From the NCBI GenBank assembly GCA_050250895.1, contig JBFWNU010000009.1, positions 198,488 through 262,487 on the forward strand: DNA of 64,000 nt, in the 5' to 3' direction. Shown in pieces: positions 25,055 through 45,100 of this stretch. The stretch's first letter is position 1. Every line of letters starts with the position of its first letter. Source of the stretch: Vulcanimicrobiota bacterium. Its GTDB lineage: Bacteria > Vulcanimicrobiota > Xenobia > Xenobiales > JADMJV01. Position numbers and translations under genes: made by a program. The notes below the pieces were generated by a model. The model made no database searches. It had not been told where the DNA came from and saw only the letters and a list, made by a program, of their open reading frames with translations.

Positions 25055-25552
25055 CTATCCGGGGCACCCAGAAGTTTCGCCGCCGCCCAAGTCCTCCGGT
25101 CGCAGTCCGGTGATCCTGAGAGCTTCGTCCAAGGCCATTCCAGAATCGACCAGCTTCTGGACCGTCTCGCGTAGCGCCAGCAATCGACCCTCCTCGCGGC
25201 CCTCCTCGCGGCCCTCCTCGCGCCCGCCCAGCCTGGCCTCCTCCAGTTGGGTGGCAGCATCGCACATCGCTTTGTGGCGCGCTTCCATGATCTCTCGAAC
25301 TTGCTCACTCGCGCTCGCCGAGCGCATCGTTCTCAGGGCCACTTCAATGCCCTCCTCTTCCTTGAGTGATTTCGGGATGGGAGCCTCCTCCCGAGTATAA
25401 AACTCGCCGAATTTCAAGACGTGCAACCACTTCTCGAAGGGCGACCTCAGACTGCGGGGCTTGTCCCTGCGAAACTTGGCTAGCTCGATGAAGTGGAACT
25501 CTAGTATATCAGACAAGACCAGGTCATGTTCGGGGTCGTGGAGTCGAAGGCG
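25055..25552 (-). pseudogene. Rpn/YhgA-like C-terminal fragment, copy 1; N-terminal nuclease domain absent
   Basis: LEFHFIELAKF, EKWLHVLK, GREEGREEGREEG, ITGL; no credible start codon. Confidence 0.75.
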
Positions 25553-26645
25553 TGTCACGCGTGGCCGACAGTTGGCACAGCTGAGGGTGGGGCGCGGCCC
25601 GCAAACCGGGCAGCGCCCAGCGCCGCAGTCGCTCGACCAGCCTGGGCCAACGAAGGTCACGCCGCCCCTGGCCGTCGCGGCGGATCATGAGCTGGACGTG
25701 GCGCAACTTGGTGCGCAAAGGGTCGGCCAGCCGATACTCCTGGCGAATCAGATAGTCCAGACTGAAATCTTGGCTCAGCACCCGCTGCAACATCTCGTAG
25801 AGGGTGTCCCTGCCGTCACGAACGGCCGAGAAGACCAGAAAGATGCAGACTCCCTCGGGTGCCAGGCGGGTCTCGAGGCCCTCGACCGCGGCCCGGGTCA
25901 ACTCGGGCGGTCCCACCGCGAACCGCATGGCCGGGTCGGCCAGGTCGGGCGGCAGGGCGGGAGGGTTGCCGATGATGAGTTGCCATTCCCCCTCGGCCTT
26001 CTGGTAGAGGTCGCTGACCTCGAATCTGGCCGAACTGTGGTTGAGTCGGGCGTTGGAGTAGGCCAGGGCGATGGCGTCGGTGTTGATGTCGAGTCCCACG
26101 ACTTCGGCGAAGCCCGGGGGCAGGGTCAAGCCCACCACCCCGCAGCCGCAGCAAAGGTCCAGCGCTCTACCGCGACCCCGGGGGAACTGTTCGAGAGCCA
26201 GCCGGCGCAAGTGAGCCGAATCATCGCCGAGATAGACGAACTCACCGGGAGAGCGTCCGGGGATCGAGCTGAGTATGTAGCGCCCGCCCACGCAGGTGAG
26301 TTGCACGATGGCCCGCACCCCCTCGGGCACCACCTCGAGAAAAGCCTCGGGAACCTGGCTACAGGCTTCGGGCTCGAGGGTGTGATGGAGGAAAAAGAGG
26401 CGAAAGAGAGTCCAGGCGGCCGGCTGCCGCTGAGAAAACTGACGATAAAGACGCTCGGGGAAGGCCACCATCGAGAGAGGCTCGACGCCCCCCTGGCGCC
26501 GCTCCCACCAGGTCCGCATCTCATGGATGGGATAGATCTTGCGGGTAGAATAGGCCGGCAACCCTTCGGTCAAGCCATAGCGACTCTCATCGAGCACCCC
26601 CCTCAGTTGCTCGAGCGCATCACCCCCAAAATCTCCCCAACTCAA
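25524..26645 (-). CDS. Class I SAM-dependent methyltransferase (HemK/PrmC-like)
   Basis: VYLGDDS, LDLCCGCG, GLDIN, SDLY, IGNPP. Confidence 0.85.
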   Translation of the reverse strand: MSWGDFGGDALEQLRGVLDESRYGLTEGLPAYSTRKIYPIHEMRTWWERRQGGVEPLSMVAFPERLYRQFSQRQPAAWTLFRLFFLHHTLEPEACSQVPEAFLEVVPEGVRAIVQLTCVGGRYILSSIPGRSPGEFVYLGDDSAHLRRLALEQFPRGRGRALDLCCGCGVVGLTLPPGFAEVVGLDINTDAIALAYSNARLNHSSARFEVSDLYQKAEGEWQLIIGNPPALPPDLADPAMRFAVGPPELTRAAVEGLETRLAPEGVCIFLVFSAVRDGRDTLYEMLQRVLSQDFSLDYLIRQEYRLADPLRTKLRHVQLMIRRDGQGRRDLRWPRLVERLRRWALPGLRAAPHPQLCQLSATRDTPSTPRPRT

Positions 26646-26757
26646 AACTGCTACCGTCTACCGTCTGAAAACTACTGTCTGACTCTTTACCTTTGGTTCA
26701 CACCCTTTCCCAGGCTGCCAACTATGCTCCTGGATGGACGGAGGAATAGAAATAAAG

Positions 26758-28287
26758 ATGTCCATCAATATACAGACAAACAGATTAGCACGAAACGTGG
26801 TGGTGATGCCCACCAAAGCCCTGGATCGCGACCAGGCAAACCAGCAGCTCGAAGAAGCCCGCCCGATGATCGAGGATCTGGGTATCGAGATCACCCGCAG
26901 CCTCGCCTCGGCCGGCGCCGTGGCCGCCCGGGCTACCGAAGACCAGCAAGCGGCTCTCAAGAAGGCCGGCTTCCAGGTCATCAGCGACCAGAAGATTCGC
27001 CTGCTGCCCAAGGGCTGGCTCAAGAGCCCCAAAGCCCTCGAAGCCCTGGCAACCTTTGACTTTTTCGACCCCTTCGCTCCTTTCCGGCGCCCCGCGCCCC
27101 GGCCGGTCGAGCAGCCTCGCAGCGGCGAGGGCGCCAGCGACTATATCGGTGAACTGCCCACCAGCGGCAAAGGCATCGGCATCGCCATCATCGACTCGGG
27201 CGTAGAGGCTCATCCCGACTTCGGCGAGCGCTTCTTGGGCAACGTCAGCCCCATCCAGGCCAATCGTCCTTATAAGGTAGGCAAAGACCCGGTGGGGCAC
27301 GGCACCCACGTGGCCGGCGACGCGGCTGGCGATGGTCGCCTGTCGGGCGGTCGCTTTCGCGGACCGGCCCACGACGCCAACATCATCGGCATTCAGGTGC
27401 TCGACGAGAGCGAGTATCAGACCGACATGTCCCAGGCCCTCGAAGAGTTCACCTCGGGCATCGACTGGATGGTCAATAACCGCGAGAAATACAACATCAA
27501 GGTGGCCAACCTGTCCCTGAGCATGCCGTTGCTAGCCGAGGGCGGGGGTTTCTACGGCCCCGAACTGCTCTATGACCCCATCGGAGCGGCCATCAACCGG
27601 GCCGTCCAGGCCGGCATCACGGTGGTGGCCGCGGCCGGCAACTCGGGCCCCGACCAGGGGAGTATCGACGGCACCCCGGCCATCAATGACAACGTGATCA
27701 CGGTGGGTGCACTCGACACCAACGGCACGCCCCAGGACCGGCGCGACGACTCGGTGGCCGAGTTCTCGAGCCGCGGGCCCACTCCGGATGGCCGGCTCAA
27801 GCCTGATATTCTGGCTCCCGGCGTGAAAATCGTGGCCCCCAACGCGCCCGGCAGCGAGATCGATTCGCAGAACTCGCTGTTCGCCAAGGTGCGCGAGGCT
27901 GTGCCTCACATGAACGGCCGTCAATTGGCCGGGGTGGCCTACAAGATGGTTCAGGCCGGTGTGCTGCCCGAGGACGTCCTATATATGGACGTTCGTGACC
28001 TGCAAGACCTCTTCGCCTATGGCCTCGACGTGCAACCCACCGAGGGACAGTGGAAAGATGGAGCCGCCTATATCGGAATGGACGGCACTTCGATGGCTTC
28101 GCCGATCGTCACCGGTGTGGTGGCGGCCATGCTCGAAGCCAACCCTGACTTGACTCCGGCCCAGGTGAAGCAGATCCTGGTCGGCACCGCCGACCCGGTG
28201 GGCGGCGAGTCGCGGGTGGCTCAGGGCGCGGGAGCCATCAACGCTCGCAAGGCGGTGGAGGTGGCTCTGCGCAGCCGGGGAGCCTAG
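26758..28287 (+). CDS. S8 subtilisin-like serine peptidase (AprX-like, no signal peptide)
   Basis: IIDSG, GHGTHVAG, AAGNSG, FSSRGPT..KPD, GTSMASP. Confidence 0.93.
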   Translation: MSINIQTNRLARNVVVMPTKALDRDQANQQLEEARPMIEDLGIEITRSLASAGAVAARATEDQQAALKKAGFQVISDQKIRLLPKGWLKSPKALEALATFDFFDPFAPFRRPAPRPVEQPRSGEGASDYIGELPTSGKGIGIAIIDSGVEAHPDFGERFLGNVSPIQANRPYKVGKDPVGHGTHVAGDAAGDGRLSGGRFRGPAHDANIIGIQVLDESEYQTDMSQALEEFTSGIDWMVNNREKYNIKVANLSLSMPLLAEGGGFYGPELLYDPIGAAINRAVQAGITVVAAAGNSGPDQGSIDGTPAINDNVITVGALDTNGTPQDRRDDSVAEFSSRGPTPDGRLKPDILAPGVKIVAPNAPGSEIDSQNSLFAKVREAVPHMNGRQLAGVAYKMVQAGVLPEDVLYMDVRDLQDLFAYGLDVQPTEGQWKDGAAYIGMDGTSMASPIVTGVVAAMLEANPDLTPAQVKQILVGTADPVGGESRVAQGAGAINARKAVEVALRSRGA

Positions 28288-28329
28288 CCAGAAGGAGATT
28301 CCGCCCGCAAACACAAGGGTTGGGCCGTC

Positions 28330-28809
28330 ATGATAGGCAAGACCGAGAAGGGGGATCTGCTGCTGGGCCTGCTGGCGCTTTTGGTCGCCTCGGTTGCCCT
28401 CGGCGTGGGCAGCAACCATCTGGCGTCCGAGGACCGGTTGGCCCTCGGACGCCCCCTACCGGCCAAACGAAACTATGAGCTTTTTCCCGCGGTGGCCCTC
28501 GACTACAGCAAGAAAGAGACTTTTCTCTTTCTTGATGTGCGAGCTCGCCCCAACTATCTGCTCGGACACATCCCAGGAGCGATCAACGTGCCCGTCCACG
28601 AGCTTGGTCGAAAGTTCCCAGACCTTAAGCACCGTATCATGACCAGCGGCGTGGTCGTCTATTGCGACAATGCCCACTGCCCGAAGGCAGACCAGGCTCG
28701 GGCAGGACTGCGCCGGCTAGGGCGAGAGGGCACGATCTGGATTGTCCTGGGTGGTTTCGAGGCCTGGCAGAGGGCTGGGTATCCGATCGAGAGCGGAGAG
28801 CCGCGATGA
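28330..28809 (+). CDS. Membrane-anchored rhodanese-like domain protein
   Basis: LDVR..GHIPGAINVP, VVYCDNAHC, GGFEAW. Confidence 0.88.
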   Translation: MIGKTEKGDLLLGLLALLVASVALGVGSNHLASEDRLALGRPLPAKRNYELFPAVALDYSKKETFLFLDVRARPNYLLGHIPGAINVPVHELGRKFPDLKHRIMTSGVVVYCDNAHCPKADQARAGLRRLGREGTIWIVLGGFEAWQRAGYPIESGEPR

Positions 28810-29249
28810 AGCCTACGGCCATCACGGCGGTCAGAGCTGTTCTCGGTGGCCTTTTCGTTGCCAGCGGCTGGGAAAAGGTACACTACCCGTTTCTGTTCGC
28901 CAAGGCATTGGCCGACTACAGAATCCTGCCGGCGCGCTCCGTCACGCTGGTAGCGGTTACTTTGCCCTGGCTCGAGATTCTGGTGGGCTTGTGTTTGTTG
29001 ACGGGCTTTTTAATCCGAAGCGCGGCCGTGCTGGAAGTTGTGCTCAGCTCAGGATTCGCTTTCGCTGTTGGCTCGGCGGTAGTGCGAGGAAAAGTCGTTC
29101 CATGCGGCTGCTTCGTTTCGCTCGGCTGGGAAGTCAGCCCCCTCCATCTTGCGCTCGATCTAGTCCTGGTAGGCCTCGGCGTTCTAGCCTATCTGACCGC
29201 CGACCGTGGTCTGGGTATCGACGGCTGGACGCGCAAGGCGGACGAATAG
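28806..29249 (+). CDS. MauE/DoxX family membrane protein
   Basis: R..LGGLF..SG..K, LPWLE, CGCF motif. Confidence 0.88.
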   Translation: MKPTAITAVRAVLGGLFVASGWEKVHYPFLFAKALADYRILPARSVTLVAVTLPWLEILVGLCLLTGFLIRSAAVLEVVLSSGFAFAVGSAVVRGKVVPCGCFVSLGWEVSPLHLALDLVLVGLGVLAYLTADRGLGIDGWTRKADE

Positions 29250-30155
29250 GTGCCTGCCTTCTTCTATAAAGGCTTTGGGCTCACGTTTTGCTCCGACCTG
29301 GAACTGCCGGAGCTACACCCGATAGAAGCGGTTGATTGCGATGTGGTCATCGAGCGCCAGCCCATCGAGGAGGAACTCGAACCGATCGACGGTCACAAGC
29401 TTCGCTACAAGGTCAGGAACGAAGAGATCTACCTGGGCCGTCCTAATCTGGGCCTCATTCGCATCGCAGGTGGGTCCATCCTGAACTATGACCCATCCCA
29501 GACCTGCTGCCGAAAACAGCTGCGAGCGGTCATCCTGGGCTCGGGGATTGCCGCCATCCTCTATCAGCGAGGGCAGCTCGCCCTCCACGCTAGCTGCGTG
29601 GTGGTCGACGGACAGGCCATTCTGCTGGCCGGCAACTCAGGAGTAGGCAAGTCCACCCTTGCGGCCGCCTTCCACCAGCGGGGCTATGCGGTCATCGCCG
29701 ATGACCTGCTGACCCTGCGGCCAGATGGTAACCGCCTTTTGGTAGAGCCTTCGGTGGTGCGGCTCAAGCTCTGGTCCGACAGCGCCAGAGCGCTCGGTAT
29801 CTCTACTTCCAGGCTCGAAGTCTTCAGCAACGGGCCGCGCCCCCGCTATCTCCTTCCCCTTCCGGCCACAGACCTCTCGTCAAAACCTGTGGCCGCGCTC
29901 GTGACTCTCGGACTTTCGGGTGACGGGAGTCTGGGGAGCGAGCGGGCCGAAGGGGCGCGCGTAGCTAATCTGCTGTACAGAATCACCTTCCGTCACGGGT
30001 TCTTGCGAACCCCACAGGTCCATCAAGAACACTTTCAAGCGGTGACCCAATGCGCCGAAAGATTGCGTTCCTATCTAGTCTGGAGACCTAATACCGGCTG
30101 GCCACCCGACCGATTGGTAGACTACATCCTGCACGTGATGGGCAAGGCTTCCTGA
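29250..30155 (+). CDS. HPr-kinase-like protein 1 (lasso-cluster tailoring kinase family)
   Basis: LHASCV, GNSGVGKST, ADD, LKLW. Confidence 0.85.
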   Translation: MPAFFYKGFGLTFCSDLELPELHPIEAVDCDVVIERQPIEEELEPIDGHKLRYKVRNEEIYLGRPNLGLIRIAGGSILNYDPSQTCCRKQLRAVILGSGIAAILYQRGQLALHASCVVVDGQAILLAGNSGVGKSTLAAAFHQRGYAVIADDLLTLRPDGNRLLVEPSVVRLKLWSDSARALGISTSRLEVFSNGPRPRYLLPLPATDLSSKPVAALVTLGLSGDGSLGSERAEGARVANLLYRITFRHGFLRTPQVHQEHFQAVTQCAERLRSYLVWRPNTGWPPDRLVDYILHVMGKAS

Positions 30156-30156
30156 C

Positions 30157-31953
30157 GTGATCTTCGCAGAGCTATGGCGACTGGTCTGGAGGGTCATCCC
30201 TCCGTCGGCCCGCCCCTATGCCGCGCTCTACCTGCCGGCCTCGCTGCTGTCCGGCTTGCTCGACCTGACCAGTGTGGCTATCTTCTTTCCGTTCCTGGTC
30301 GCCATCACCAATCGCCGCGCTCTCGAACACCACCGCTATTTCATCAAAATACAACAGGTGCTGGGGGTGAGTTCGAGCAAGGATTTGCTAGTCTTTCTCG
30401 GTGTGCTGATTCTGTTGTCCCTGGTGCTGCGCGAAGTCTACTCCGTCGTCCTCTCCTACTACACCGTCCGACTTAACGGGCAGATTCAGCACGCTCTGTC
30501 AGAGCGACTGCTGCAGGTCTACCTCACCCGCTCTTACCGCTTCTTTCTAACGCGCCACTCCAGCGACCTCAGCCAGAATGTTCTGGTTCGGGTCAACGGC
30601 TTTTTGACGGGAATCTTCCAGCCCATGCTGGCATTGGTCCAGTCGGTGGCGACATTTTTCGTTTTTTTGGCCGGCCTACTCTATCTTCAGCCGATCCTGG
30701 CCCTGATCAGCCTGGTCACCTTCGGCCTCATCCATCTGGCCATTCACCTTCGGCTCGAACCCTGGCTCACCGAGTTGGTCCGCCGGGTCAGAGACCTGAA
30801 CATGGCTCGCTACCGCACGGCCCAGGAGGTTATCCAGGGCATTCGAGAAGCCAAGCTACTGGGTTGCGAAGGCTTCTTTCTCGAATCTTTCGCCCGCTAC
30901 AACCAGGAAGTGCATACCTTGATGCTGCGGCGCACGCTGGTCAACCAATTGCCCCGCCTGGTCTCTCGAACGACCCTCATGCTATTGGTGGTGGCCGCCG
31001 CCCTCGGGTTGGTAGTGGCCGGACAAGAACAGCACCTCGTGCCGATCATGTTACTCTATGTGATGCTGCTGTTTCGCACGCTTCCGCGTATTCGCGGTCT
31101 TTTCGGCTCGTTTACGGGTCTTAAGACCGAAATGGCTCAACTGGAAGACATCGCCGCCGACCTGGGACTCGAGCGGCCCGATGATCGAGCCATCGCCGCC
31201 CCGGTTGAAGCGATGCCTTTTCACGGACGACTGGAACTGCGCGGTGTCGGACTGTCCTACGATCAAGCCCGCCGGGCCGCCCTGGCCGATGTCAATCTAA
31301 CTATCGAGGCTGGGCAGAAGGTAGCGGTCGTAGGCCGGACGGGAGCGGGGAAGACTACCCTTCTCGACATCCTGACCGGCCTGCTCGCTCCCTCTCAAGG
31401 TGAGGTATGGGTGGACGGAACGGTGCTGGCCGACGAACCCAAAGAGTGGCGGGCCAACATCGGCTATGTCTCTCAAGTGAACTACATCATCGACGCCCCA
31501 TTGGCCCACAACATCGCTTTTGGTGTCTCGGACGAAGCCATCGACCTCGACCGTGTTCGGCGCGCCTGTTGGTTGGCGGCCCTCGACGAGTTCGTCGAAA
31601 CCGAACTGCCCGAGGGATACAAAACCATAGTGGGTGACCGCGGGGTAGCCCTTAGCCAGGGTCAGCGCCAGCGCGTGGGAATCGCCCGGGCCCTCTACCG
31701 CGACCCCAGCGTGGTTGTGCTCGACGAGGCTACCAGCAACCTCGACCCCGTGACCGAACGCCTGGTGCTCGAACGGATCTCGGCGCTTGAGCCATCGCGA
31801 ACGGTCATCTTCGTCAGTCACCGCATCAAGACAGTGTTGCGGTTCGAGAGAATCTTCGTGGTGGTCGAAGGGCGACTGGTCGGTCAAGGCGACGAGGCTT
31901 CTCTAACACAGACCTGCCCCGAGTTCGTCGAACTGTTAGCCGGTTCGGACTGA
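30157..31953 (+). CDS. ABC transporter, fused permease/ATPase
   Basis: TM N-half; GRTGAGKTT, LSQGQRQR, LDEATSNLD, SHR. Confidence 0.93.
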   Translation: MIFAELWRLVWRVIPPSARPYAALYLPASLLSGLLDLTSVAIFFPFLVAITNRRALEHHRYFIKIQQVLGVSSSKDLLVFLGVLILLSLVLREVYSVVLSYYTVRLNGQIQHALSERLLQVYLTRSYRFFLTRHSSDLSQNVLVRVNGFLTGIFQPMLALVQSVATFFVFLAGLLYLQPILALISLVTFGLIHLAIHLRLEPWLTELVRRVRDLNMARYRTAQEVIQGIREAKLLGCEGFFLESFARYNQEVHTLMLRRTLVNQLPRLVSRTTLMLLVVAAALGLVVAGQEQHLVPIMLLYVMLLFRTLPRIRGLFGSFTGLKTEMAQLEDIAADLGLERPDDRAIAAPVEAMPFHGRLELRGVGLSYDQARRAALADVNLTIEAGQKVAVVGRTGAGKTTLLDILTGLLAPSQGEVWVDGTVLADEPKEWRANIGYVSQVNYIIDAPLAHNIAFGVSDEAIDLDRVRRACWLAALDEFVETELPEGYKTIVGDRGVALSQGQRQRVGIARALYRDPSVVVLDEATSNLDPVTERLVLERISALEPSRTVIFVSHRIKTVLRFERIFVVVEGRLVGQGDEASLTQTCPEFVELLAGSD

Positions 31954-31990
31954 AGGAATTTTCGAGCAGGTCTGGCAACTAGGTGGCCCG

Positions 31991-32881
31991 ATGAGCTTTC
32001 GTTACCAAGAGGCCGGCCTCAAAATCAGCTCGGAAATCGAGCTGCCCGAAGCCCGTTCTTTCTCGTTTGACGGCGATCCCGACCTGATCATCAGGCGCGG
32101 TCCGGTGCCCGAGCTGGACCAACCCTACCTTCAGGGAGGAGTCTTTCAGGCCGCCCGCGGGCTACTGCGCCTGGAACTAGACGGCGTCGCTCGTTACCTG
32201 GTGGAGCCAGGACAAATCCTGGTCGAACAGGCGGAACAGGCCGAAGATGCCGACATGCGGGTCTTTCTCCTGGGCTCTTGCCTGGGTGCGGCCCTCTACC
32301 TGGCAGGTCGCCTGGTATTGCACGCGAGTGCCGTCCGCCACCGGGGCAGGGCCCACCTTTTCGTCGGCCGCTCGAGCGTCGGCAAATCCGCTCTCGCCCT
32401 GGGCCTGAAGACCCACGGCTTGGAGCCTTTGACCGACGAATTGGCGGTCCTCCGGATTATTGACGGACACCCCCACCTCGAACCGACATTTGGCCATCTC
32501 AAGGTTTGGCACGATGTGCTGGTGCGAGAGAACTACCAACCCGACCAACTCCAGAGGGTGCGCAGCGGAGTGCTTCATCGCTACAAAGTGCCTTTCGAGC
32601 CGGCCGACGAAGCGTTACCAGTGGGGGCCATCCACCAATTGGGATGGTGGAACCAGGCTCACTTCGACTATCAGGAGATAGCCCCTCTGGAGCGCTTTAA
32701 TCGTCTGCTCCGAAACACATATCGTGGTGTCTATGCCGAAGGCCTGGGCCCGTCACGCCCGTATTTCGAAACCCTCAAGAGGGTTGCCGAGGTGATAACC
32801 GTTACTTCGCTCATCCGCCCCGACGCCGGAATCGACCGGCTGCGAGATTTTCCTGACTTCGTGGTGGAGAAGGTTCTATGA
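31991..32881 (+). CDS. HPr-kinase-like protein 2
   Basis: LHASAV, GRSSVGKS, TDE, LKVW; paralogous to 29250-30155. Confidence 0.82.
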   Translation: MSFRYQEAGLKISSEIELPEARSFSFDGDPDLIIRRGPVPELDQPYLQGGVFQAARGLLRLELDGVARYLVEPGQILVEQAEQAEDADMRVFLLGSCLGAALYLAGRLVLHASAVRHRGRAHLFVGRSSVGKSALALGLKTHGLEPLTDELAVLRIIDGHPHLEPTFGHLKVWHDVLVRENYQPDQLQRVRSGVLHRYKVPFEPADEALPVGAIHQLGWWNQAHFDYQEIAPLERFNRLLRNTYRGVYAEGLGPSRPYFETLKRVAEVITVTSLIRPDAGIDRLRDFPDFVVEKVL

Positions 32882-33747: not shown

Positions 33748-33763
33748 TGTCAAAAGGGCAGCG

Positions 33764-34045
33764 ATGAAATTAGACCTGTCTTCTATCCTTCGTAAGAGCG
33801 ACTCTCTTCTCGAGAGCGATCTTGGGGAAGAGAAGGTTATGATGAGTATCGAACGGGGGGAGTACTTCGGGCTCAACCACTCTGGCCGGTACTTGTTTGA
33901 TCTTTGTGATGGACAGAAGACCGTTGGCGAGATACTGGAGTGCGTTTCGGGGCAATACGACACTGCAGCAACCGATTGGCGCGATCAAAGCCACGCCTTC
34001 TTGAGCAGATTACTGCGAGATGGTATGGTCGAAATCGCCGACTAA
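33764..34045 (+). CDS. PqqD-family RiPP recognition element (lasso B1)
   Basis: DLGEEKVMMSIERGEYFGLN..G...DG..TV.EI...Y...FL..L...G. Confidence 0.9.
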   Translation: MKLDLSSILRKSDSLLESDLGEEKVMMSIERGEYFGLNHSGRYLFDLCDGQKTVGEILECVSGQYDTAATDWRDQSHAFLSRLLRDGMVEIAD

Positions 34046-36469: not shown

Positions 36470-36582
36470 TTGGAAATCTCTTTTGGCCAGTTGGGAGGAT
36501 CCCACCGTTCGTGGAGAACTTCGCTCTCGCGCGCTACAAATGGCATTCTTGAATCCACAGCACAGGAGGAGGTGCTAGCCTG

Positions 36583-37749: not shown

Positions 37750-38064
37750 CCAGGGCGACGTCGTCTTGAATCTTGGCTTCGGGGCCTGCAACGGCTCGGC
37801 CAGCAAGCCTGCTCCGGCAAGCGAATGCAGGGCTAGAAGCGTCACCTTGCGGGCGTCCGCAAAGGGAAGCGGCAGCTGCAAACGTTCGACCAACTGATAG
37901 AGGGGCTGAGCCTGATCACAAGCCTGCAGACACTTCCCTAGCCAGCCTGGCAGCGCAATCAATCGACTGACTCGAGGTAGATAGGCCAGCATTTCGTCGT
38001 CGCCATCCCAACAAAAGACGTCGCGGCAAGTCGGAGGGACCATGATGGGTTCAGGCATAAGCAT
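37678..38064 (-). CDS. Divergent PqqD/RRE-like protein
   Basis: DEMLAY..SRLIAL...CLQACD...LYQLVERL...LLALHSLAGAGLL resembles RRE topology. Confidence 0.5.
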   Translation of the reverse strand: MLMPEPIMVPPTCRDVFCWDGDDEMLAYLPRVSRLIALPGWLGKCLQACDQAQPLYQLVERLQLPLPFADARKVTLLALHSLAGAGLLAEPLQAPKPRFKTTSPWLAVALVVDLSVAEPFRPKPADMI

Positions 38065-38887
38065 CTTGGCCCGGACTGATGCGCTTGACTCGGGTCGGAG
38101 AGTCAAACAACGAACACTGCTGGAATAGTTTTTGCTCTCCTGAAAAACCCAGCCACGTCCAGGTGTAGCCCTCTCGGGTTAGATTGCCGCTCAGCGAAAG
38201 TCTGAGCCTCTGTCCGGCAGTCACCTGCACGGGACCGCATAGCGGCAGGCGAAGGCAGACGCCGAACAGATCGGCGCCTCGAAGACGAAGCACCAGAGAA
38301 CCGATGGTCGCGGGTCGTTCGGCCTCAAGGCAAGCCTGGCGCGAAAAGCGACTCAGGCGTTCATCTCGCAAGCTGAGGCTTCTCAGAGAACGGAACTCCA
38401 GGTCGGGCGGTGGGTCCAAAGGGGAAACGCGATTGGCCAGGTAGGACTTCCAACCGTCATAGCATAGCTCGCCCGCGGGAAACGGGACGGTTTCTTCGAG
38501 CAGGGCCACTTCGAGAGTCATCTGGTCCGCCAGAAGATTAGGCTCGGCCCCGATCTGCTCGAAGGCTTGAATCAGAAATGGGTCAAGCCCTCCCCGAGCG
38601 AGGGGCCAGTAGAAAACACAGTGAAAGGTCTCGGACGGATAGAGAGCGGGCAGCCCGGTCCGACCCTCGAAGCGAGCCTCTACATTGTTGTCTCTTGCCA
38701 ACACCCTGGCCATCTCGACCTGCTCTGATGATCCGTAGAAGACTGCTTTCTCGGCCCCGGCCCGAAGAGCCACTACCGAGGCCAGGCCCGCGCCGCAACT
38801 CAGCTCGAGCAGCTTCGTGCTGGGCTCGATGCGGGCTCGCAAACGGTCGAGACAACCAGCTTGAGGAAGAGCGAATGGATGCACCAT
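38051..38887 (-). CDS. Degenerate PRMT-like methyltransferase paralogue
   Basis: LLELSCGAGL..VALRAGAEK, MARVLARDN; C-terminal GYTWTW..FQQCSLF parallels GYQYFW..RQSTFL of 36583-37749. Confidence 0.6.
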   Translation of the reverse strand: MVHPFALPQAGCLDRLRARIEPSTKLLELSCGAGLASVVALRAGAEKAVFYGSSEQVEMARVLARDNNVEARFEGRTGLPALYPSETFHCVFYWPLARGGLDPFLIQAFEQIGAEPNLLADQMTLEVALLEETVPFPAGELCYDGWKSYLANRVSPLDPPPDLEFRSLRSLSLRDERLSRFSRQACLEAERPATIGSLVLRLRGADLFGVCLRLPLCGPVQVTAGQRLRLSLSGNLTREGYTWTWLGFSGEQKLFQQCSLFDSPTRVKRISPGQDAYA

Positions 38888-41508
38888 CAGGGTTTACCCA
38901 TGGGAGCGTGCCAGAGAATCTCGGACAGAGCGGGGGGGTGGGTGAAGACGGCCAGAAGATGCCCCTGATCGTCTCCCAGAAGGGCCGAAGTGGCTGGGGC
39001 TGCCCCAAATTTCTGACACAGCTGCTCGAATCGGACCTTCTCAAAGCGCGGATTCTTCGGTCCCACCAGTTCGAGCGAAGGCAATGGCGATTCTGCGGCG
39101 GCCCGCAGCAACCACAACTGCAGCGGTTTGTCGGTGTGACCCAAGACCAGAGGTCGTTCTTCGGGGCGGGAAGCGGCCAGGGTTCGCACCTCCAGTCGGC
39201 CGGTTCGCTCGGACAGGTCATAGTGATGGCCGGCTGCAACCTGGTCAAATCGCTGGACTCGCCCCGACGGCCAGCGCACCGTCAAGCGAACGGGGCCATT
39301 GGCCAGCGCGAGCGTCTGAACAAAGCTGTTCTGCCCCCCGAAACCATTGCCGACCGTCACCTGGCTGGTTTGACGCCGTTTGCCCTGCTCGACTGTCAGG
39401 ACGGCCCCGACCGCGTCCCGATTCGACCAGGACCGGCGGTCGCCCGGGGTGGCCCCACCCTGTAAACGCAGGCTCAGCCACGATGCCCCTCGCGTCTGGT
39501 TGCGATAGAGAGCTAGCGAGGGCCGATTGAGGCTCACCACGGCCAGATCGGGCCGACCATCGGCGTCCAGGTCGGAGATAGCGCATCCCCGTCCGTCCGC
39601 CACAGAATTGAGGCCGCTCAAACCAGACACAGACAGAAAACGTCCGTCTTCAGTCTGGGCGAAGGCGTGATTCTCTTCGAGCCCTCGACGCGTCCTGCCC
39701 AGGGGGCCGCGGCTCTTGCCCGGCGCCGTATAGAGCCCGGCCGGAAAGAAGATATCCTGGCGACCGTCACTATTGAGATCGACGAATTGCCCACCAGAGC
39801 CATAGTCGACCTCTTCGAGCCAGGGTCCATCGACTGCCCGGAATCCGTCTGCCGTGTTGCGATACAAGCGATTGCCGCGCAGACATTGGGTCGAATAGGG
39901 GGCGTGGGCGAAGGCTCTGCGATTGAGGGTCGTGTTGGTCACCAGCAGGTCCAGACGGCCGTCGCCGTCATAGTCGGCAACCGACGCGCCACGGGGATTG
40001 AGCAGCTTCTGCTCGACTCCGCCGCCCAGCGGGTTGAAGCCACCGGCCCCGGTGCTGTAGAAAAGCGGGCTGCGCTCCAGAGCCGGCACGACGAGGTCCT
40101 GATGGCCGTCGCCGTCCATATCGGCGCACACGCCCGCCAGAGCATAGAATGGAGTCGGGTTGGAACCGGTCACCTCGAATTTCTGGCCCAGGTTGTGTAG
40201 CAACAAGCACTTGGGCTGGCTAAAGGAGAACACGATCAGGTCTAGCCGGCCGTCACGGTCTGCGTCGGTCGGTATGATGTTGGAAACGTCCCTCAAGGCT
40301 GGTAGCACGCTGCCGGGGCGGAATTTTCCCTGCTCGTTCGCCAGCAACAAGAGAGAGCGGGCTCCACCGAGCACGAGGTCGCGGTCGCCGTCGTTATCGA
40401 GGTCGGCGAAGACGCAAGCCCCGTAGAACTCGGGAAGGTCGAGGCCGGCCTCCTGGTCGCCGCGCCGAAACCCCCCGCCAACATTCTTCAACCAGAAACT
40501 GCCGCCGGTCCGTCGCGAGACGAACAGATCGTCGAGCCCGTCGAGGTCGATGTCGGCAGCCACGATGGTTGGTTTGCGCTTAAGGCCCAGGTACATTGGC
40601 ACATCCACGTCTGAACCGCTGCGGTCGGCTTGCAGAATCAGGGCTTCATAGGGCGATTGCTCTGACCAACCGAGGGTCTCGAGTGAAGGGACCCATTGAC
40701 TGGTGGCCTGCTCGAACCAGGGTTGATCCGTCTCAGCCTGGCGAAGTGCGACCCGAGGAAGGCCCACGAGACGCCAGTTGCCGGCTTGTTCTCGGCGGTA
40801 GCGAAACCAGAGGTTGCCGGCCACCACCCTGAATCGACCATCCTTGGTGCGAAGCTCGAGTGAAACACGCGCCTGACCATCCCACTCGCGCTCGCTTGGG
40901 TCCAGGAAGCGACCATCGACGAAGGTGGCGCGAACGTTGTGGAAACAGGCCACATCGTCCAGCAATCGCCCCAAGATTGCAGCCGGGTCAAACGCGCGCA
41001 CCTCGGTGCCAGGCATGGTCTCGATCACCTGCCAGGAGCAGCCGAGTGCCTGCTCGACCGAGGTGTCGAGGGAAGGGCCGAAGAGTTGAGGCTGAGCCCG
41101 AAGCCCGAGCAACTTCGTTGGCAAGCGCAGCTCCATCAGGGCCCTGGCGGCGGCCTGTAAATCGGGTTCTAGCTCGTCGCAGAGCAGGAGAGCCTCGGCG
41201 GCGGGAATTCGCCAGGTTGCCTCGATGCCTGAGTAGATTAGAGCCCGGCCGTAGAGCGCCCCCGAGAGCGGGAGCAAAAAGGCCACTGTCAGAGCCGTCT
41301 GGCGTTGTCCAGGCAGACGCCATCTCCAGCACAGCAGAAGACCCAAGACCACCAGAAACAGGCGCAGGGCCGCAATCAACCACAACACCTTGCGATTTTC
41401 GACCTCGGGTTCATCCAAGACCCACAGTCCCACCACGGGACCGGATAGCAGGGCCCCGGTGAAGACAAGCACCAGGCCCAACAAGCGATCGCGGGTCCAA
41501 AATTTCAT
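38887..41508 (-). CDS. CRTAC1-like protein: N-terminal TMs, FG-GAP repeats, ASPIC/UnbV domain
   Basis: Repeated DxDxDGxxDL motifs (DIDLDGLDDL, DLDNDGDRDL, DYDGDGRLDL); NRDAVGA, VRWPSG. Confidence 0.88.
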   Translation of the reverse strand: MKFWTRDRLLGLVLVFTGALLSGPVVGLWVLDEPEVENRKVLWLIAALRLFLVVLGLLLCWRWRLPGQRQTALTVAFLLPLSGALYGRALIYSGIEATWRIPAAEALLLCDELEPDLQAAARALMELRLPTKLLGLRAQPQLFGPSLDTSVEQALGCSWQVIETMPGTEVRAFDPAAILGRLLDDVACFHNVRATFVDGRFLDPSEREWDGQARVSLELRTKDGRFRVVAGNLWFRYRREQAGNWRLVGLPRVALRQAETDQPWFEQATSQWVPSLETLGWSEQSPYEALILQADRSGSDVDVPMYLGLKRKPTIVAADIDLDGLDDLFVSRRTGGSFWLKNVGGGFRRGDQEAGLDLPEFYGACVFADLDNDGDRDLVLGGARSLLLLANEQGKFRPGSVLPALRDVSNIIPTDADRDGRLDLIVFSFSQPKCLLLHNLGQKFEVTGSNPTPFYALAGVCADMDGDGHQDLVVPALERSPLFYSTGAGGFNPLGGGVEQKLLNPRGASVADYDGDGRLDLLVTNTTLNRRAFAHAPYSTQCLRGNRLYRNTADGFRAVDGPWLEEVDYGSGGQFVDLNSDGRQDIFFPAGLYTAPGKSRGPLGRTRRGLEENHAFAQTEDGRFLSVSGLSGLNSVADGRGCAISDLDADGRPDLAVVSLNRPSLALYRNQTRGASWLSLRLQGGATPGDRRSWSNRDAVGAVLTVEQGKRRQTSQVTVGNGFGGQNSFVQTLALANGPVRLTVRWPSGRVQRFDQVAAGHHYDLSERTGRLEVRTLAASRPEERPLVLGHTDKPLQLWLLRAAAESPLPSLELVGPKNPRFEKVRFEQLCQKFGAAPATSALLGDDQGHLLAVFTHPPALSEILWHAPMGKP

Positions 41509-41561
41509 CGCCCCCAATTCTGCCCGGCAGGACTAAACCCTACCGCGGTAAACGCTGGCGC

Positions 41562-42308
41562 GTGAGCCAGGTCTGGGAGGCTATCGAGGAATATCAACAA
41601 GCGCTAGGCTGGAGCACGGTGCTCGATGCCGGCACGGGACACAGCTCCTTAGGGTGGCTGACCAGGCTGGAATGCCAGGTCTGGACGGCGGTGACGGCAA
41701 GCCCCAAGCGATATGCAGACCTTCAGGCCGACCTGGGTGCTTCGATTCGCTTGCAAGACCGCCTCGTTCTAGGCAACTGGCTCGACGAGCAACTGCTCGA
41801 CCGGCAATGCTTCGACGTAGTGGTGGCTCACTATCTCTTGGGCGCGCTCGAGCGTTACAGCCCATATTTCGAGTTCGCACTCCTCAAGCGCCTTCGTCGC
41901 CACGCATCGGGTCGGCTCTACTTTGTGGGGATGGAGCCGTCGCGCAAGTTCGCTAGTCAGGAAGAGCATCTGATGCACCAGCTTTTCTGTTTTCGCGACG
42001 CCTGCTACCTGCACGCCGGCTCTCGGGGTTATCGAGAATACCCGATGAACTGGGTGCAAGAGCGCCTGGGCGAATGCGGATTTCGCACCCTAGAAACGGC
42101 GGTCTTTCCAAACATTTACGGCGAGAATTATCTCGAACAGTTCTTCAACGCTTGTCGCTACCAGTTAGCCGAGATCGGCTGCCCCGAACTCAGAGCAGTG
42201 CTCGAGCAGCGAGCCGACAGCCTGCACGCTTCGACTCTGGAGGCAGTCCAGCGCCACCATCGCTTGCGCGCGGGCTTTGACTATCTCATCGTGGCCGAGG
42301 CAGTGTGA
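41562..42308 (+). CDS. Class I SAM methyltransferase-like protein
   Basis: VLDAGTG, FDVVVAHYLLGA, GRLYFVG.EP. Confidence 0.75.
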   Translation: MSQVWEAIEEYQQALGWSTVLDAGTGHSSLGWLTRLECQVWTAVTASPKRYADLQADLGASIRLQDRLVLGNWLDEQLLDRQCFDVVVAHYLLGALERYSPYFEFALLKRLRRHASGRLYFVGMEPSRKFASQEEHLMHQLFCFRDACYLHAGSRGYREYPMNWVQERLGECGFRTLETAVFPNIYGENYLEQFFNACRYQLAEIGCPELRAVLEQRADSLHASTLEAVQRHHRLRAGFDYLIVAEAV

Positions 42309-43348
42309 GCCGGGCTTTCGCCACCGTCTTGCGAGCCGCCCGGGGTCAGCCAGTCGGACCGCCCGAACTTCTCGAGGGCGAGTGGGGCCGCCTGACCGAG
42401 TTGCTGGTCCACCATGGCTTGCTGGTGCCGGTGGCCCGAGAGTGGCTCGCTGAGGAAGTCACACTGCCGGGGCGCGTGCGCGATTTCTTGCTCCGGGCGC
42501 AGCGGCAGCACGCTCTGCGGGCTAGCCAGCAGCTACAGGTGCTAACCAGTTTGGCGGAGCAGTCACCGATCCCAATATTGGCATACAAAGGCTTGCCCCT
42601 ATCAGCTCTACTCTACGGAGACCCGTTGGAGCGAAGCTCGAGCGACATCGACATCTTGATTCACCCCGCCGACCTGCAACCCGCTGTCAAGTTTCTAGAG
42701 CGACTTGGCTTTCGCCAGCGCCTGCCCCGTCCTCTCGAGGGCGAGCTACTCGCCCTGCTGGCCCGGACGGGAAACGAGCTCAGCCTGGAGTGGGAGGGCG
42801 TCAGCCTCGACCTTCACTGGCGACTGCTGCCCACCTATCTGAGCTGTCTTACCACCGAAGAGCTTTTCGAGCGCAGCCAGGTCTGGCAGTGTGGCTCAAC
42901 CGCGGTCCGAGTGCTATCCCCCCGAGACCGGGTGGCCGCGATCTGCCTGCACGCCACTAAGAGCTGCTGGGAGAAACTGCGCTGGCTGCGCGATCTGGAT
43001 GCCGCCAGAGAGGTGGCTCAGGTGAACAGCCCCAGTGGAAGGGCCGAAGAGCTCGGCTGGAGATTGCTCAATTTGCTCGAGCGCTCTCCCGCGGACCCCT
43101 GGGAGAGTTCGCTGCTCGAGTCCTGGTGTCACCCGCGGGGGCGCGGCCCCGGCCAGCGACGCCTGATGATCGCACACTCGCTCGGTCGCCGATGGAGTGC
43201 TCTCCGATTTCTGACGGGCTTTGCGGTCACTCCGACGGCGCTCGATTACTCGAGCCGACAGCTTCCCCGCGCCCTCTGGGGTCTCTATCCCTTCCTGCGC
43301 CTCTGGTCGCTGGTTGTCAAAGGCTCAGAAACGCAGGAAAAGCTCTGA
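42305..43348 (+). CDS. Nucleotidyltransferase family protein (NTP_transf_5-like, lasso-cluster associated)
   Basis: YKG..L...LYG...RSSSDIDILI, LDLHWRL, LHATK..W.KLRWLRD. Confidence 0.87.
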   Translation: MSRAFATVLRAARGQPVGPPELLEGEWGRLTELLVHHGLLVPVAREWLAEEVTLPGRVRDFLLRAQRQHALRASQQLQVLTSLAEQSPIPILAYKGLPLSALLYGDPLERSSSDIDILIHPADLQPAVKFLERLGFRQRLPRPLEGELLALLARTGNELSLEWEGVSLDLHWRLLPTYLSCLTTEELFERSQVWQCGSTAVRVLSPRDRVAAICLHATKSCWEKLRWLRDLDAAREVAQVNSPSGRAEELGWRLLNLLERSPADPWESSLLESWCHPRGRGPGQRRLMIAHSLGRRWSALRFLTGFAVTPTALDYSSRQLPRALWGLYPFLRLWSLVVKGSETQEKL

Positions 43349-43350
43349 AG

Positions 43351-44604
43351 GTGCCGCAAGTGGTCGCCATGACGGAGTGCAACACGCTGACCGCATTCTG
43401 GAGCGACTTTTGCCGCAACCACTGGGAGTCCAGACCCGGACAGTTTCCGGGCTTCTTCTCGAGCCCCATCGCCAGCCCCACAGAACTCTTTCAGGCCTGC
43501 TTGGACAAATCCGGAGCCGGTGCCTCGGATCGCATCTGGGTGGCCAGCCAGGACAGCTATCAAAAGGTTGACTATAGCAAGTTTGGGCCGCGCACCGAGG
43601 ATGTCGATCTGGATGGCTTCTTCGAACGGATAGATCAGAACCTGAAAGGAAGGCCTTTCGGTCTCAATCGCCACGCTCTCCAGCTAGGCTCGGCCGAGCT
43701 GTGGTTTCGCTTTCGCCAGTTCCTGCGCGATTTTCATGAGCTTCTCGGGTTGCCTACCGGACGCTGGGATATCGATACCTTCTGGGGCACCTACGCCGCT
43801 ACTCCGTTCGGTATCCATGTCGACAACGCCAGCGTGTTCGCCATCGGAGTCAAGGGCTATCGCACCTACTACACCTGGCCCCGAGACTACTTCGAGGAGG
43901 ATGACCCAGCCCTGCACAGTCCCGACCCCGGGGTTATCGACCCCCACAAAGCCGAGGCCGTTCGCCTGGAACTGGGCCCCGGTGATATGGTCTATTGGCC
44001 GTCGAGCCATTGGCACGTAGTGACCTCCGACGGCAGCCCGTCGGCGGTGATCCAGCTCAGTTGCTATTTTGACTTCGACCTGGCCCAGGTGGTGGGCAAC
44101 CTGTGCCAACGGCTGGTGAAGACCCAGGCCGATCGATTCTACGGACAGGGTAGCGACCTTCCAACCTGCCTGGCCGAGGCGGGGCGCTGCGTCGAGGAGA
44201 GCCTGGGCGAGCAGTTAGAAACATTTTGGCTCAAGCGGTATACCGCCGACGCATTCTGGCAATACCCGGCCATGGAGCCGGCCGGCGGATTACCATCCTC
44301 ACTTCGCCTGGAAGAACGGGGACGAATAGCCTGGCGCGAGAGTGGCGGGGGCTCGCTGGTTGGCTGCAACGGCCACGTTCTACGCTCAGCCCTCAAGCCC
44401 GCGGACCTCGAGGCCGGGTTGAGGGACATCGCTAGCCTTCCGGCCGGGTTACAGACGATGCTCTATCGCGCCCGCGGGCTGCGACCTGACGATAAGTCGA
44501 GCCGCGCCGACAACTGTGGACTCTTACGCGAAGACGTCGACCTTCGGGAAATGCGTCGTGGGTGGACGCGCAGGGAGGAACGTGACGGGTCGCCCGGTCG
44601 ATAG
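43351..44604 (+). CDS. JmjC/cupin-like Fe(II)/2-oxoglutarate oxygenase
   Basis: FGIHVD (HxD), G.R.Y..WP, LGPGDMVYWPSSHWH; start 43351 or 43369. Confidence 0.8.
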   Translation: MPQVVAMTECNTLTAFWSDFCRNHWESRPGQFPGFFSSPIASPTELFQACLDKSGAGASDRIWVASQDSYQKVDYSKFGPRTEDVDLDGFFERIDQNLKGRPFGLNRHALQLGSAELWFRFRQFLRDFHELLGLPTGRWDIDTFWGTYAATPFGIHVDNASVFAIGVKGYRTYYTWPRDYFEEDDPALHSPDPGVIDPHKAEAVRLELGPGDMVYWPSSHWHVVTSDGSPSAVIQLSCYFDFDLAQVVGNLCQRLVKTQADRFYGQGSDLPTCLAEAGRCVEESLGEQLETFWLKRYTADAFWQYPAMEPAGGLPSSLRLEERGRIAWRESGGGSLVGCNGHVLRSALKPADLEAGLRDIASLPAGLQTMLYRARGLRPDDKSSRADNCGLLREDVDLREMRRGWTRREERDGSPGR

Positions 44605-44632
44605 TGACATTCGCCAACGCGACCCTATGGAA

Positions 44633-45100
44633 TCACTTCTTGCCGAGCAAGCCACTAAAGGGGATGTGAGTGCCGAACTCGGTCAGGCTGTTGACGAAGC
44701 TCTTGAGGGCGCTCTCCTTGGAGGGGTCGAAGGCTTTGCCGTTGTGGTGCACCTGGACGACCTTGCCCACTAACGCCGACTTGGGCAAGATTTGGGCTTT
44801 GCGCTGGCCGTCGTGGGTGACGGCGAGAAAGCTGTCTTCAGCGGTGATCTTGAGCTTGATGAAGCGGCGCAGCATCAGGTCTTTGCCTGAGCGCACATAG
44901 ATGACATCGCCGGCTTTGAGCTTGGTGAAGACAGTGGGCTGGAGTTCGATCTCCGATCCCGGGGGCACCAGCGTCTTGAGGTCGGAGTGGGTGATGCGGA
45001 GCTTTTTCGACTTGCCCGATTGAAAGGCTTGGGCAGCGATGGATGCAGTGTTGAGATCGCGAGCCACGCTCGCCTGGAAGGTTGAATAGTCGTTCGCCAT
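44633..45100 (-). CDS. S24/S26 peptidase-like fold protein, catalytic motifs degenerate
   Basis: LRITHSDLKTLVPPGS...LKAGDVIYVR...LRRFI...LVGKV; SD AGGAGA. Confidence 0.55.
   Translation of the reverse strand: MANDYSTFQASVARDLNTASIAAQAFQSGKSKKLRITHSDLKTLVPPGSEIELQPTVFTKLKAGDVIYVRSGKDLMLRRFIKLKITAEDSFLAVTHDGQRKAQILPKSALVGKVVQVHHNGKAFDPSKESALKSFVNSLTEFGTHIPFSGLLGKK

Follow-up and report, generated by a model that had tools for sequence, protein, structure and literature searches.

A probable horizontally inserted split-B lasso-peptide gene cluster with a large tailoring set and a 74-residue precursor core in a Vulcanimicrobiota genome

We analysed a 64,000-nucleotide stretch of a Vulcanimicrobiota bacterium genome (assembly GCA_050250895.1, contig JBFWNU010000009.1, positions 198,488 to 262,487; hereafter the window), in which a first-pass annotation had described a heavily tailored lasso-type biosynthetic locus. 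Open reading frames (ORFs) were taken from a six-frame listing, their proteins were scanned against Pfam and NCBIfam, and PDB, hhalign, BLASTP and phmmer comparisons were used for follow-up. The locus opens with a plus-strand run of genes encoding a rhodanese-domain protein, a MauE/DoxX-family membrane protein, a kinase (K1), an ABC exporter, a second kinase (K2), a sulfotransferase, a leader-recognition protein (B1), a candidate precursor peptide (A), a leader peptidase (B2) and an Asn-synthetase-like cyclase (C), with a methyltransferase of protein arginine methyltransferase (PRMT) fold beyond them. The intergenic gaps from rhodanese to C are −4 to 37 nt, a packing as close as had been claimed. 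Three minus-strand genes (orf142, a diverged PRMT-family paralogue that we call dPRMT, and an FG-GAP/UnbV_ASPIC repeat protein) converge on this run, and a second plus-strand sub-operon lies downstream, consisting of a 248-residue methyltransferase-like gene (MT248), an NTP_transf_5 nucleotidyltransferase (NT) and a JmjC oxygenase. All 17 frames are open and their codon-position GC is coding-like. Family searches backed 17 of the 20 gene labels in the first-pass annotation, the exceptions being an "RRE-like" protein (RRE, RiPP recognition element; RiPP, ribosomally synthesised and post-translationally modified peptide), an "S26-like" gene and one methyltransferase; its central claim, a split-B lasso cluster with an unusually large tailoring set, is supported. 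A scan of 26000-45500 for promoters and terminators gave 2 promoter-like and 17 terminator-like sites, a count not above that in shuffled sequence.

Table 1. Features of the locus and its flanks, in window coordinates (SAM, S-adenosylmethionine; PAPS, 3'-phosphoadenosine 5'-phosphosulfate)
Feature	Position	Strand	Evidence or remark
HemK-like methyltransferase	25524-26645	-	family search
S8 protease	26734-28287	+	family search; 42 nt upstream of rhodanese
Inserted island, 17 genes, rhodanese to JmjC, 16.3 kb	28288-44632		missing in same-genus genome G001
Rhodanese-domain protein	28330-28809	+	PF00581 6.7e-14; 4-nt overlap with MauE start
MauE/DoxX-family membrane protein, 147 aa	28806-29249	+	PF07291 4.8e-23; PF07681 8.5e-8
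Kinase K1, HPr-kinase-like	29250-30155	+	PF07475 (Hpr_kinase_C) 1.1e-9; TIGR04352 (HprK_rel_A) 1.4e-10
ABC exporter	30157-31953	+	PF00664, PF00005; membrane and ATPase domains, no peptidase domain
Kinase K2, HPr-kinase-like	31991-32881	+	TIGR04352 (HprK_rel_A) 6e-7 alone among family models
PAPS-type sulfotransferase	32878-33747	+	PF00685 (Sulfotransfer_1) 1.5e-27
B1, PqqD-type leader-recognition protein	33764-34045	+	PF05402 4.2e-14; NF033536 5.3e-14
Precursor A, 93 aa	34071-34352	+	ORF between B1 and B2
B2 leader peptidase, transglutaminase-like Cys protease	34378-34806	+	NF033537; PF13471 1.9e-21
C, Asn-synthetase-like lasso cyclase, GTG start	34814-36469	+	PF00733 1.8e-26
PRMT-fold SAM methyltransferase	36583-37749	+	PDB PRMT1/6/8, E ~1e-20, residues 2-273
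orf142, candidate second PqqD-like RRE (uncertain)	37678-38106	-	coding-like codon-position GC
dPRMT, diverged PRMT-family paralogue	38051-38887	-	PrmA 1e-3
FG-GAP/UnbV_ASPIC repeat protein, hydrophobic N-terminus	38887-41508	-	PF13517 3.2e-32; PF07593 1.9e-11
MT248, 248-aa class-I SAM methyltransferase-like	41562-42308	+	Methyltransf_12 0.022; 4-nt overlap with NT
NT, NTP_transf_5 nucleotidyltransferase	42305-43348	+	PF14907 3.7e-37
JmjC/cupin Fe(II)/2-oxoglutarate oxygenase	43369-44604	+	PF08007 (JmjC_2) 2e-6; likely start ATG 43369
orf148, ~148 aa ("S26-like" gene)	44633-45079	-	no family match
FBPase	45165-46337	+	conserved backbone gene

The lasso machinery is split, with B1 and B2 recognised by family models as a PqqD-type RRE and a transglutaminase-like peptidase, respectively. 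B2 scored 82.3 bits against NF033537 (cut-off 33), the B1 reading frame opens at 33698, and C exceeds the cut-offs of both PF00733 and PF13537 and contains an SGGLDS motif in its translation. The precursor divides into a 19-residue leader and a 74-residue core (G20 to S93). Its leader follows the pattern W5-x-x-P8-x-V10-x-x-x-G14-x-x-x-T18-L19 and runs into G20-G21, which places T18 at position −2, and E28, at core position 9, is the sole acidic residue among the first 27 of the core. The order B1-A-B2-C with its ABC exporter, the leader pattern, and a core that starts with Gly and carries Glu at position 9 can all be read directly from the sequence. We conclude that 28288-44632 is probably a horizontally inserted split-B lasso-peptide gene cluster. 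Furthermore, a complex prediction of B1 with precursor residues 1-40 gave a mark of 0.44, compared to 0.00 for the best control, with at least 77% contact agreement between runs and a partner pLDDT (predicted local distance difference test) of at least 50. Of 157 solved complexes 116 attain this mark, as do 2 of 215 mismatched pairs, and a pass at ≤0.60 counts as weak. The prediction thus lends weak support to binding of the leader by B1, and the pass may reflect likeness to RRE-leader complexes that are already solved.

The evidence for insertion comes from related genomes. The 17-gene interval is missing from G001, the one genome of the same genus, whose contig C313, searched with the window DNA, has the HemK-like methyltransferase and S8 genes separated by ~195 bp from the orf148 homologue, with FBPase and PhoH beyond it. 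The backbone reads PhoH-FBPase-orf148-HemK in five sister-genus genomes (L060, L061, L063, L064 and L065), and because it lacks the island there too, insertion into the present genome is the simpler reading. The first and last genes of the cluster mark the exact limits of the island, and third-position GC, at 0.79-0.81 in S8, orf148 and FBPase, is lower in island genes (0.60-0.77). At the island ends we found neither direct nor inverted repeats of more than 7 nt, and no mobility genes turned up in the Pfam scan.

These comparisons also bear on a wider reading, proposed in the first-pass annotation, in which a single pathway takes in the HemK-like methyltransferase, the "S26-like" gene and all genes between them, with the S8 protease and the convergent trio counted in. 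All of these genes lie within 20 kb, with S8 immediately upstream on the same strand. The trio is inside the island, orf142 is PqqD-like by language-model features, and dPRMT is a paralogue of the lasso-linked methyltransferase family, a PRMT homologue of which stands beside PqqD-domain proteins in locus L052. However, S8, the HemK-like methyltransferase and orf148 are adjacent in G001 without the cluster, which marks them as conserved backbone rather than cluster genes; for the HemK-like methyltransferase and orf148 this adjacency extends to the five sister-genus genomes, and the third-position GC of the flanking genes is backbone-like. Within the trio, the ASPIC protein has no homologue at 1e-20 in 60 relatives, dPRMT has none beyond its island paralogue at E≤1e-5 in the 5.8-billion-cluster database, and orf142 has no hhalign support as an RRE. 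We consider the wider reading improbable. The S8 protease, the HemK-like methyltransferase and orf148 are not members of the cluster, as they fall outside the 16.3-kb insertion, and the "S26-like" label finds no family match.

Two corollaries concern the flanks themselves. A role for S8 as a dedicated tail-trimming protease was dropped, as it is a backbone gene, and a 324-aa minus-strand frame at 44633-45607 was rejected as an over-call of orf148, since its relatives are ~150-200 aa and its upper 300 nt are antisense to the FBPase gene; this antisense overlap explains its apparent full-length tblastn matches. S8 lies between the HemK-like methyltransferase and orf148 only in the two genomes of this genus. 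In the five sister-genus genomes a HemK-like methyltransferase match falls within 0.5-0.9 kb of orf148, with no S8 match between them. The same intergenic spot therefore seems to have been hit twice, first by S8 and then by the lasso island.

The most unusual feature of the locus is the length of the core, on which the first-pass annotation does not remark. The core composition given in the first-pass annotation (11 Thr, 4 Ser, 3 Tyr and a terminal Ser) is exact for residues 20-93, which also contain 2 Cys (C45 and C83) and 0 Arg. According to a 2026 review, the longest characterised lasso peptide is pandonodin, with 33 residues and an 18-residue tail (PMC13352647), so that the 74-residue core lies outside the characterised range of ≤33 residues. 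In a word-indexed search of 5.8 billion protein clusters the sole match to the precursor was P0003 (93 aa, 75% identical), and a full HMMER pass over 1.84 billion representatives added P0013 (92 aa, E 1.9e-34) and P0014 (81 aa, E 4e-6), giving a family of four members of 81-93 aa; a further match at E 5e-4, to a 2167-aa repetitive protein, was disregarded as a precursor relative. All four aligned sequences share, without change, the leader motif, T18, G20, G21, E28, H31, C45, H46 and a C-terminal P-G-T-S. The features of a lasso precursor, Thr at −2, a small residue at the core start and Asp/Glu at positions 7-9, are thus present in all four members as T18, G20 and E28. A T-x-C-x-G stretch upstream of PGTS is likewise conserved in 4/4, and the second Cys is kept across the family, as judged by eye from the alignment.

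Searches further afield added no members. Against 400 genomes of the phylum the precursor gave noise only (E 0.004 or worse), JGI metagenome contigs gave no match either to P0003 or to the precursor alignment, and species-representative genome contigs gave none to the cyclase. The four-precursor alignment produced one match in the species-representative genomes, which we rejected as a chance leader-like string before an unrelated ORF with no adjacent lasso genes, and a language-model look-up (Atlas) of the precursor returned nothing above 0.87. Two other ways of parsing the ORF were dropped: a core starting at M22 with a 7-residue ring, because M22 is Lys in 2 of the 4 homologues, and a multi-core precursor, because there is no repeated leader-like site. 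A motif scan for other precursors inside the island found only one implausible 38-aa intergenic frame.

If the mature product keeps roughly the whole 74-residue core, it would be a ~7.2-kDa lasso mini-protein in which a 65-residue tail threads a 9-residue ring, the rhodanese/MauE pair makes a tail-tail disulfide outside the cytoplasm, and phosphate, sugar, sulfate, methyl and hydroxyl groups decorate the chain. The calculated masses are 7217.47 Da (monoisotopic) for the linear core, 7199.46 Da for its macrolactam and 7197.44 Da for the macrolactam bearing a disulfide. We put this complete picture forward tentatively. An ordinary-sized product is also conceivable, though in our view somewhat doubtful, in which the 74-residue core is an intermediate and housekeeping proteases trim the tail after ring closure to ~20-30 residues. 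Characterised lasso peptides do not exceed 33 residues and their tails are frequently shortened by cellular carboxypeptidases (PMC13352647). In agreement with such trimming, conservation along the precursor peaks in the ring region (residues 20-37) and the middle is variable, and an AlphaFold2 model of the precursor from a 2-row alignment (mean pLDDT 35) was without a confident core fold and too poor to interpret. However, PGTS, the T-x-C-x-G stretch that precedes it and both Cys are conserved in 4/4 precursors. Kinases of this family are known to act on a C-terminal Ser (PMC8498205) and, taken with the conserved precursor end, this indicates that the far end is under selection. Furthermore, no protease gene for such trimming was found inside the island in the Pfam and NCBIfam scans, and some lasso systems accept proteins fused to the C-terminus by engineering (PMC13352647).

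The conserved Cys pair draws attention to the first two genes of the run. Read by eye, the N-terminal segment of the rhodanese is hydrophobic and its active-site loop has the form CxxxxC, and a CGC motif occurs in MauE; the true start of MauE is at 28806 and its stop abuts the K1 start. The closest MauE relative in the 5.8-billion-cluster database is 38% identical. The DoxX-family protein SviE belongs to Cys-bearing class I lasso clusters (PMC9266682), which provides a precedent for a disulfide role of MauE. The likeness to the sviceucin type (SviE, SviF) extends to the DoxX/MauE-family membrane protein and the Cys-bearing core (PMC9266682), whereas the partner differs: here it is a rhodanese with a CxxxxC loop and the island contains no thioredoxin-like gene, while SviF is thioredoxin-like with a CXXC motif. 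Sviceucin is still produced after sviF deletion (PMC9266682). Our literature search, which covered full-text papers other than subscription-only ones, found nothing on lasso peptides and MauE beyond genome-mining papers. Based on operon structure and the conserved Cys pair, the rhodanese and MauE are probable members of the cluster. At a separate locus, L030 (G000:C2:703000-718999, ~7163-8858, minus strand), a MauE-DUF1573-rhodanese triad adjoins a MatE transporter and a Ser/Thr kinase.

K1 and K2 are diverged from each other (28% identity over full length, E 6e-27). Walker A is retained in both, K2 keeping GxxxxGKS. In paeninodin-type systems, lasso kinases phosphorylate the C-terminal Ser (PMC8498205), and both elements of that type are found here, in the two HPr-kinase-like kinases and in S93, present in 4/4 precursors. 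The kinase BsfK, by comparison, acts on Ser3 (PMC10368454). The co-occurrence of an NTP_transf_5 enzyme with a kinase is that of the pseudomycoidin type, where the nucleotidyltransferase decorates phosphoserine (PMC8498205); the kinase and nucleotidyltransferase precedents cited in the first-pass annotation were both confirmed in this source. Paralogues at L025, another locus of the same genome, scored 3.2e-19 for the K1 type and 1.5e-23 for the K2 type, placing both kinase types in one paralogous cluster. Sulfotransferase paralogues adjoin lasso cyclase homologues in L025, L026, L041 and L042, and members of the NTP_transf_5 family recur in three lasso loci (L045, L046 and L053) as well as in L052.

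To set these genes in a wider context, we compared the window proteins by phmmer with all ORFs of the same genome and with the contexts of the best cyclase matches in relatives. Sixteen loci, taken from this genome and its relatives, hold a cyclase homologue. Among them, a kinase occurs in 9, a sulfotransferase in 5, B2 in 5, NTP_transf_5 in 3, PRMT in 2 and JmjC in 2, whereas S8 and HemK homologues occur in 0/16. Homologues of the kinases, the sulfotransferase, NT, the PRMT-like methyltransferase and JmjC thus stand beside lasso genes in related genomes, as would be expected if, as proposed from the sequence, they are accessory genes of the lasso core. Together with the core genes, their membership in the cluster is well supported. 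The gene order is NT / ABC-B1-B2-C-kinase-PRMT-PhyH in L045 and NT-ABC-B2 / C-PRMT-kinase in L053, and candidate precursors in both have predicted cores of ~20 aa. L046 contains NT, sulfotransferases, GNAT, JmjC and a kinase. The present genome has at least 4 loci of the kinase/sulfotransferase/Asn-synthetase-like type. L025 (G000:C1:3466000-3485999) encodes a weak sulfotransferase, C, B1, a 2-oxoglutarate oxygenase with TPR, a kinase, three sulfotransferases, a second kinase and GT8, and no B2 was found there using the present cluster's B2 as query. L026 (G000:C1:2156000-2175999) and L027 (G000:C1:3402000-3421999) are further kinase/sulfotransferase/Asn-synthetase-like loci of the same genome, the latter with B1 in addition.

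The PRMT-like protein combines the class-I SAM fold with the PRMT-type barrel/oligomerisation region, according to its PDB matches to eukaryotic PRMT1/6/8, and shows weak PRMT5_C and PRMT_C matches in Pfam. When the protein is aligned to PRMT1, Asp and Gln stand where the substrate-binding loop, which we take to be the PRMT double-E loop, has its two Glu. Because the loop is D...Q and there is no Arg in the 74-residue core, the enzyme cannot be an arginine methyltransferase acting on the core and would have a different acceptor. The three longest-matching PRMT homologues among 60 relatives are all in lasso or RRE contexts (L045, L053 and L052), the one in L052 adjoining two PqqD-domain proteins and NT.

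The JmjC protein shows a weak match (6e-4) in the PDB to the YcfD-type arginine hydroxylase of ribosomal protein L16. Its iron triad H150/D152/H216 (H-x-D...H) is invariant in 3/3 aligned lasso-linked sequences. Among 60 relatives a single JmjC homologue turned up (43% identity), separated from a truncated cyclase by 1.5 kb that include a toxin-antitoxin-like pair, and L046 has a more distant JmjC_2 gene flanked by B1 and a kinase. At the locus of the former, L044 (G043:C119, 4320-4977, minus strand), the ORFs between the JmjC homologue and the cyclase, which stops after 320 aa, are PIN-domain-like and AbrB/SpoVT-like, as named by eye from the translations; L044 looks like a disrupted sister cluster.

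The convergent trio and MT248 are harder to place. The language-model features (Atlas) of orf142 reach 0.93 to PqqD clusters, which make up 23/30 matches. It has no Pfam match even at E 10 and no NCBIfam match, hhalign against six B1 proteins gave a probability of 0.28%, BLASTP against the two L052 PqqD-domain proteins gave E 0.04 and 0.11, and its AlphaFold pLDDT of 45.7 is too poor to interpret. The "RRE-like" label of the first-pass annotation is thus a lead, resting on the PqqD-like features and opposed by the family and hhalign searches. The label "degenerate PRMT" for dPRMT is weakly backed by its PrmA match and by a 64-residue match to the PRMT-like protein (E 1e-6); there is no other homologue at E≤1e-5 in the 5.8 billion clusters, leaving it an orphan. 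MT248 owes its methyltransferase label to the Methyltransf_12 match and a GxGxG SAM motif seen by eye. Its homologues are single-copy in 14/60 relatives; 11 of these loci were checked, and none had a cluster gene within ~1.5 kb. The membership of the ASPIC-dPRMT-orf142 trio and MT248 in the cluster is uncertain, and they may be passengers of the same island. An FG-GAP repeat protein also borders the Bradymonas bsf lasso cluster and was judged unrelated by its authors (PMC10368454); the presence of such a gene beside bsf and inside the present island may be a coincidence or a recurring neighbour.

The genes at hand suggest a pathway in which we infer the chemistry of every step, while the gene identities and order, the island and the conservation pattern are observed. 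B1 would bind the leader, and K1 and K2 would phosphorylate Ser on the still-linear precursor, likeliest at Ser93 by analogy with the paeninodin type, with a second site possible as with BsfK. The NTP_transf_5 enzyme may then decorate the phosphoserine, as in pseudomycoidin, and the sulfotransferase may put sulfate on a hydroxyl or on the added sugar. The PRMT-fold methyltransferase would methylate a non-Arg residue and the JmjC oxygenase would hydroxylate a side chain. B2 would cleave after L19 and C would link G20 to E28, closing a nine-residue ring around the tail. The product would be exported by the ABC pump, and the membrane-bound rhodanese and MauE could oxidise C45 and C83 to a tail-tail disulfide.

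Several observations weigh against this interpretation, in whole or in part. Against the curated lasso-cyclase model NF033535, C gave 1.8e-59 and 201.9 bits, below the cut-off of 525. The 16 cyclase loci are the best cyclase matches, many on short contigs and from genomes that are kin, and the counts are therefore descriptive rather than independent. Homologues of the rhodanese, MauE, ASPIC, MT248, dPRMT-type and orf142 proteins occur in 0/16 of these loci, leaving the proposed link of the rhodanese/MauE pair, the ASPIC trio and the 248-aa methyltransferase to lasso genes without support from co-occurrence. The triad at L030 has no RiPP genes beside it, which indicates that MauE/rhodanese pairing exists independently of the lasso island. 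In the core, none of the tyrosines is invariant across the four precursors, nor is Ser4, and between Pro and Thr(−2) the leader has 2 residues fewer than the leaders of the L045 and L053 candidate precursors. P0003 is encoded on a 12,159-bp contig, where a collinear order would require the whole of MauE or the whole of dPRMT; as neither has a close homologue in the 5.8-billion-cluster database, the content of the P0003 locus differs on at least one side. Finally, all the chemistry is assigned by analogy.

Could the pathway simply not work, either because the island is decaying or silent, or because the 93-aa ORF is not the substrate and the true precursor is encoded elsewhere or missing? dPRMT looks degenerate, and the closest JmjC relative stands beside a truncated cyclase with an inserted toxin-antitoxin pair. 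We nevertheless find this very unlikely, as 17/17 frames are open with coding-like GC and catalytic motifs are intact in K1, K2, C and JmjC, and the 93-aa ORF, flanked by B1 and B2 and endowed with the leader motif, has full-length conservation in three other sequences. No other plausible precursor emerged from the motif scan of the island.

At the gene level, the locus fits the description of a lasso biosynthetic gene cluster of the kinase and nucleotidyltransferase subtypes, with a core length that exceeds the known range by more than 2-fold. It resembles the paeninodin type (PadeK, ThcoK, SyanK) in its split B1/B2, cyclase, ABC exporter, HPr-kinase-like kinase and Ser-ending precursor (PMC8498205), and the Bradymonas bsf cluster (BsfK, BsfN) also in its nucleotidyltransferase and FG-GAP neighbour (PMC10368454). 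Unlike either, it has two diverged kinases, a sulfotransferase, a PRMT-fold methyltransferase, JmjC, the rhodanese/MauE pair and a 74-residue core. The likeness to the cluster for pseudomycoidin, a phospho-glycosylated product of Bacillus pseudomycoides, is at family level, in the combination of a kinase and an NTP_transf_5-type nucleotidyltransferase in one cluster (PMC8498205), whereas NT here lies in a three-gene sub-operon with the methyltransferase-like and JmjC genes, 5.8 kb from the cyclase. Pandonodin, a lasso peptide of class IV with a tail-tail disulfide, shares two Cys C-terminal of the ring and a long tail (PMC13352647); the disulfide of the present peptide is predicted, its predicted tail and loop span 65 residues compared to 18 to ~24, and its cluster has the rhodanese and DoxX/MauE pair. 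The sister clusters L025, L045, L053 and L046 surround homologous cyclases with tailoring genes from a shared pool of families; none unites all the families, and none has rhodanese/MauE or an ASPIC protein.

We found no cluster of such content in the searchable full-text literature, in line with the first-pass statement that the combination is not known from a characterised cluster, and no characterised sulfated lasso peptide. The novelty of the combination is partial: earlier bioinformatic work had pointed out kinase, sulfotransferase and nucleotidyltransferase together in lasso clusters of Firmicutes (PMC8498205). In this lineage, moreover, lasso clusters with heavy tailoring are common, and with the Firmicutes precedent this means that tailoring alone does not make the locus a new kind. 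It is set apart by its long-core precursor family, by the dedicated rhodanese/MauE pair and by an island that is clean and transferable.

Lasso peptides are prized as very stable scaffolds, and long tails have so far been obtained only via engineered fusions. If the 74-residue core is processed naturally, it would show the reach of B1/B2/C and supply enzymes that tolerate protein-sized substrates. A ~7.2-kDa mini-protein would exceed every characterised lasso peptide more than 2-fold in size and would stand for a rare, four-member precursor family. One transferable 16-kb unit gathers most of the tailoring families that are otherwise scattered over the lasso clusters of the lineage. Among them, the sulfotransferase, the non-Arg PRMT-fold methyltransferase, JmjC and rhodanese/MauE are without a characterised lasso example in the searchable literature, and the clean island boundary makes for a ready-made fragment for heterologous expression.

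Some neighbouring features of these loci fall outside the argument. In L046 (G009:C1), a phage tail-collar domain protein (6691-7215, minus strand) adjoins the cyclase, and an animal-haem-peroxidase family protein (2.8e-147; 16246-17820, minus strand) is a few kb from B2. L029 (G000:C2:585000-602999) carries GT2, two NTP_transf_5 genes, an ABC exporter and a distant kinase-like ORF, with no cyclase detected, and could be a related but non-lasso pathway. Within the window itself, 21594-24529 is backbone, encoding a phosphoglucomutase/phosphomannomutase, a PD-(D/E)XK nuclease (PDDEXK_3, 1.2e-42) and a GDP-mannose 4,6-dehydratase.

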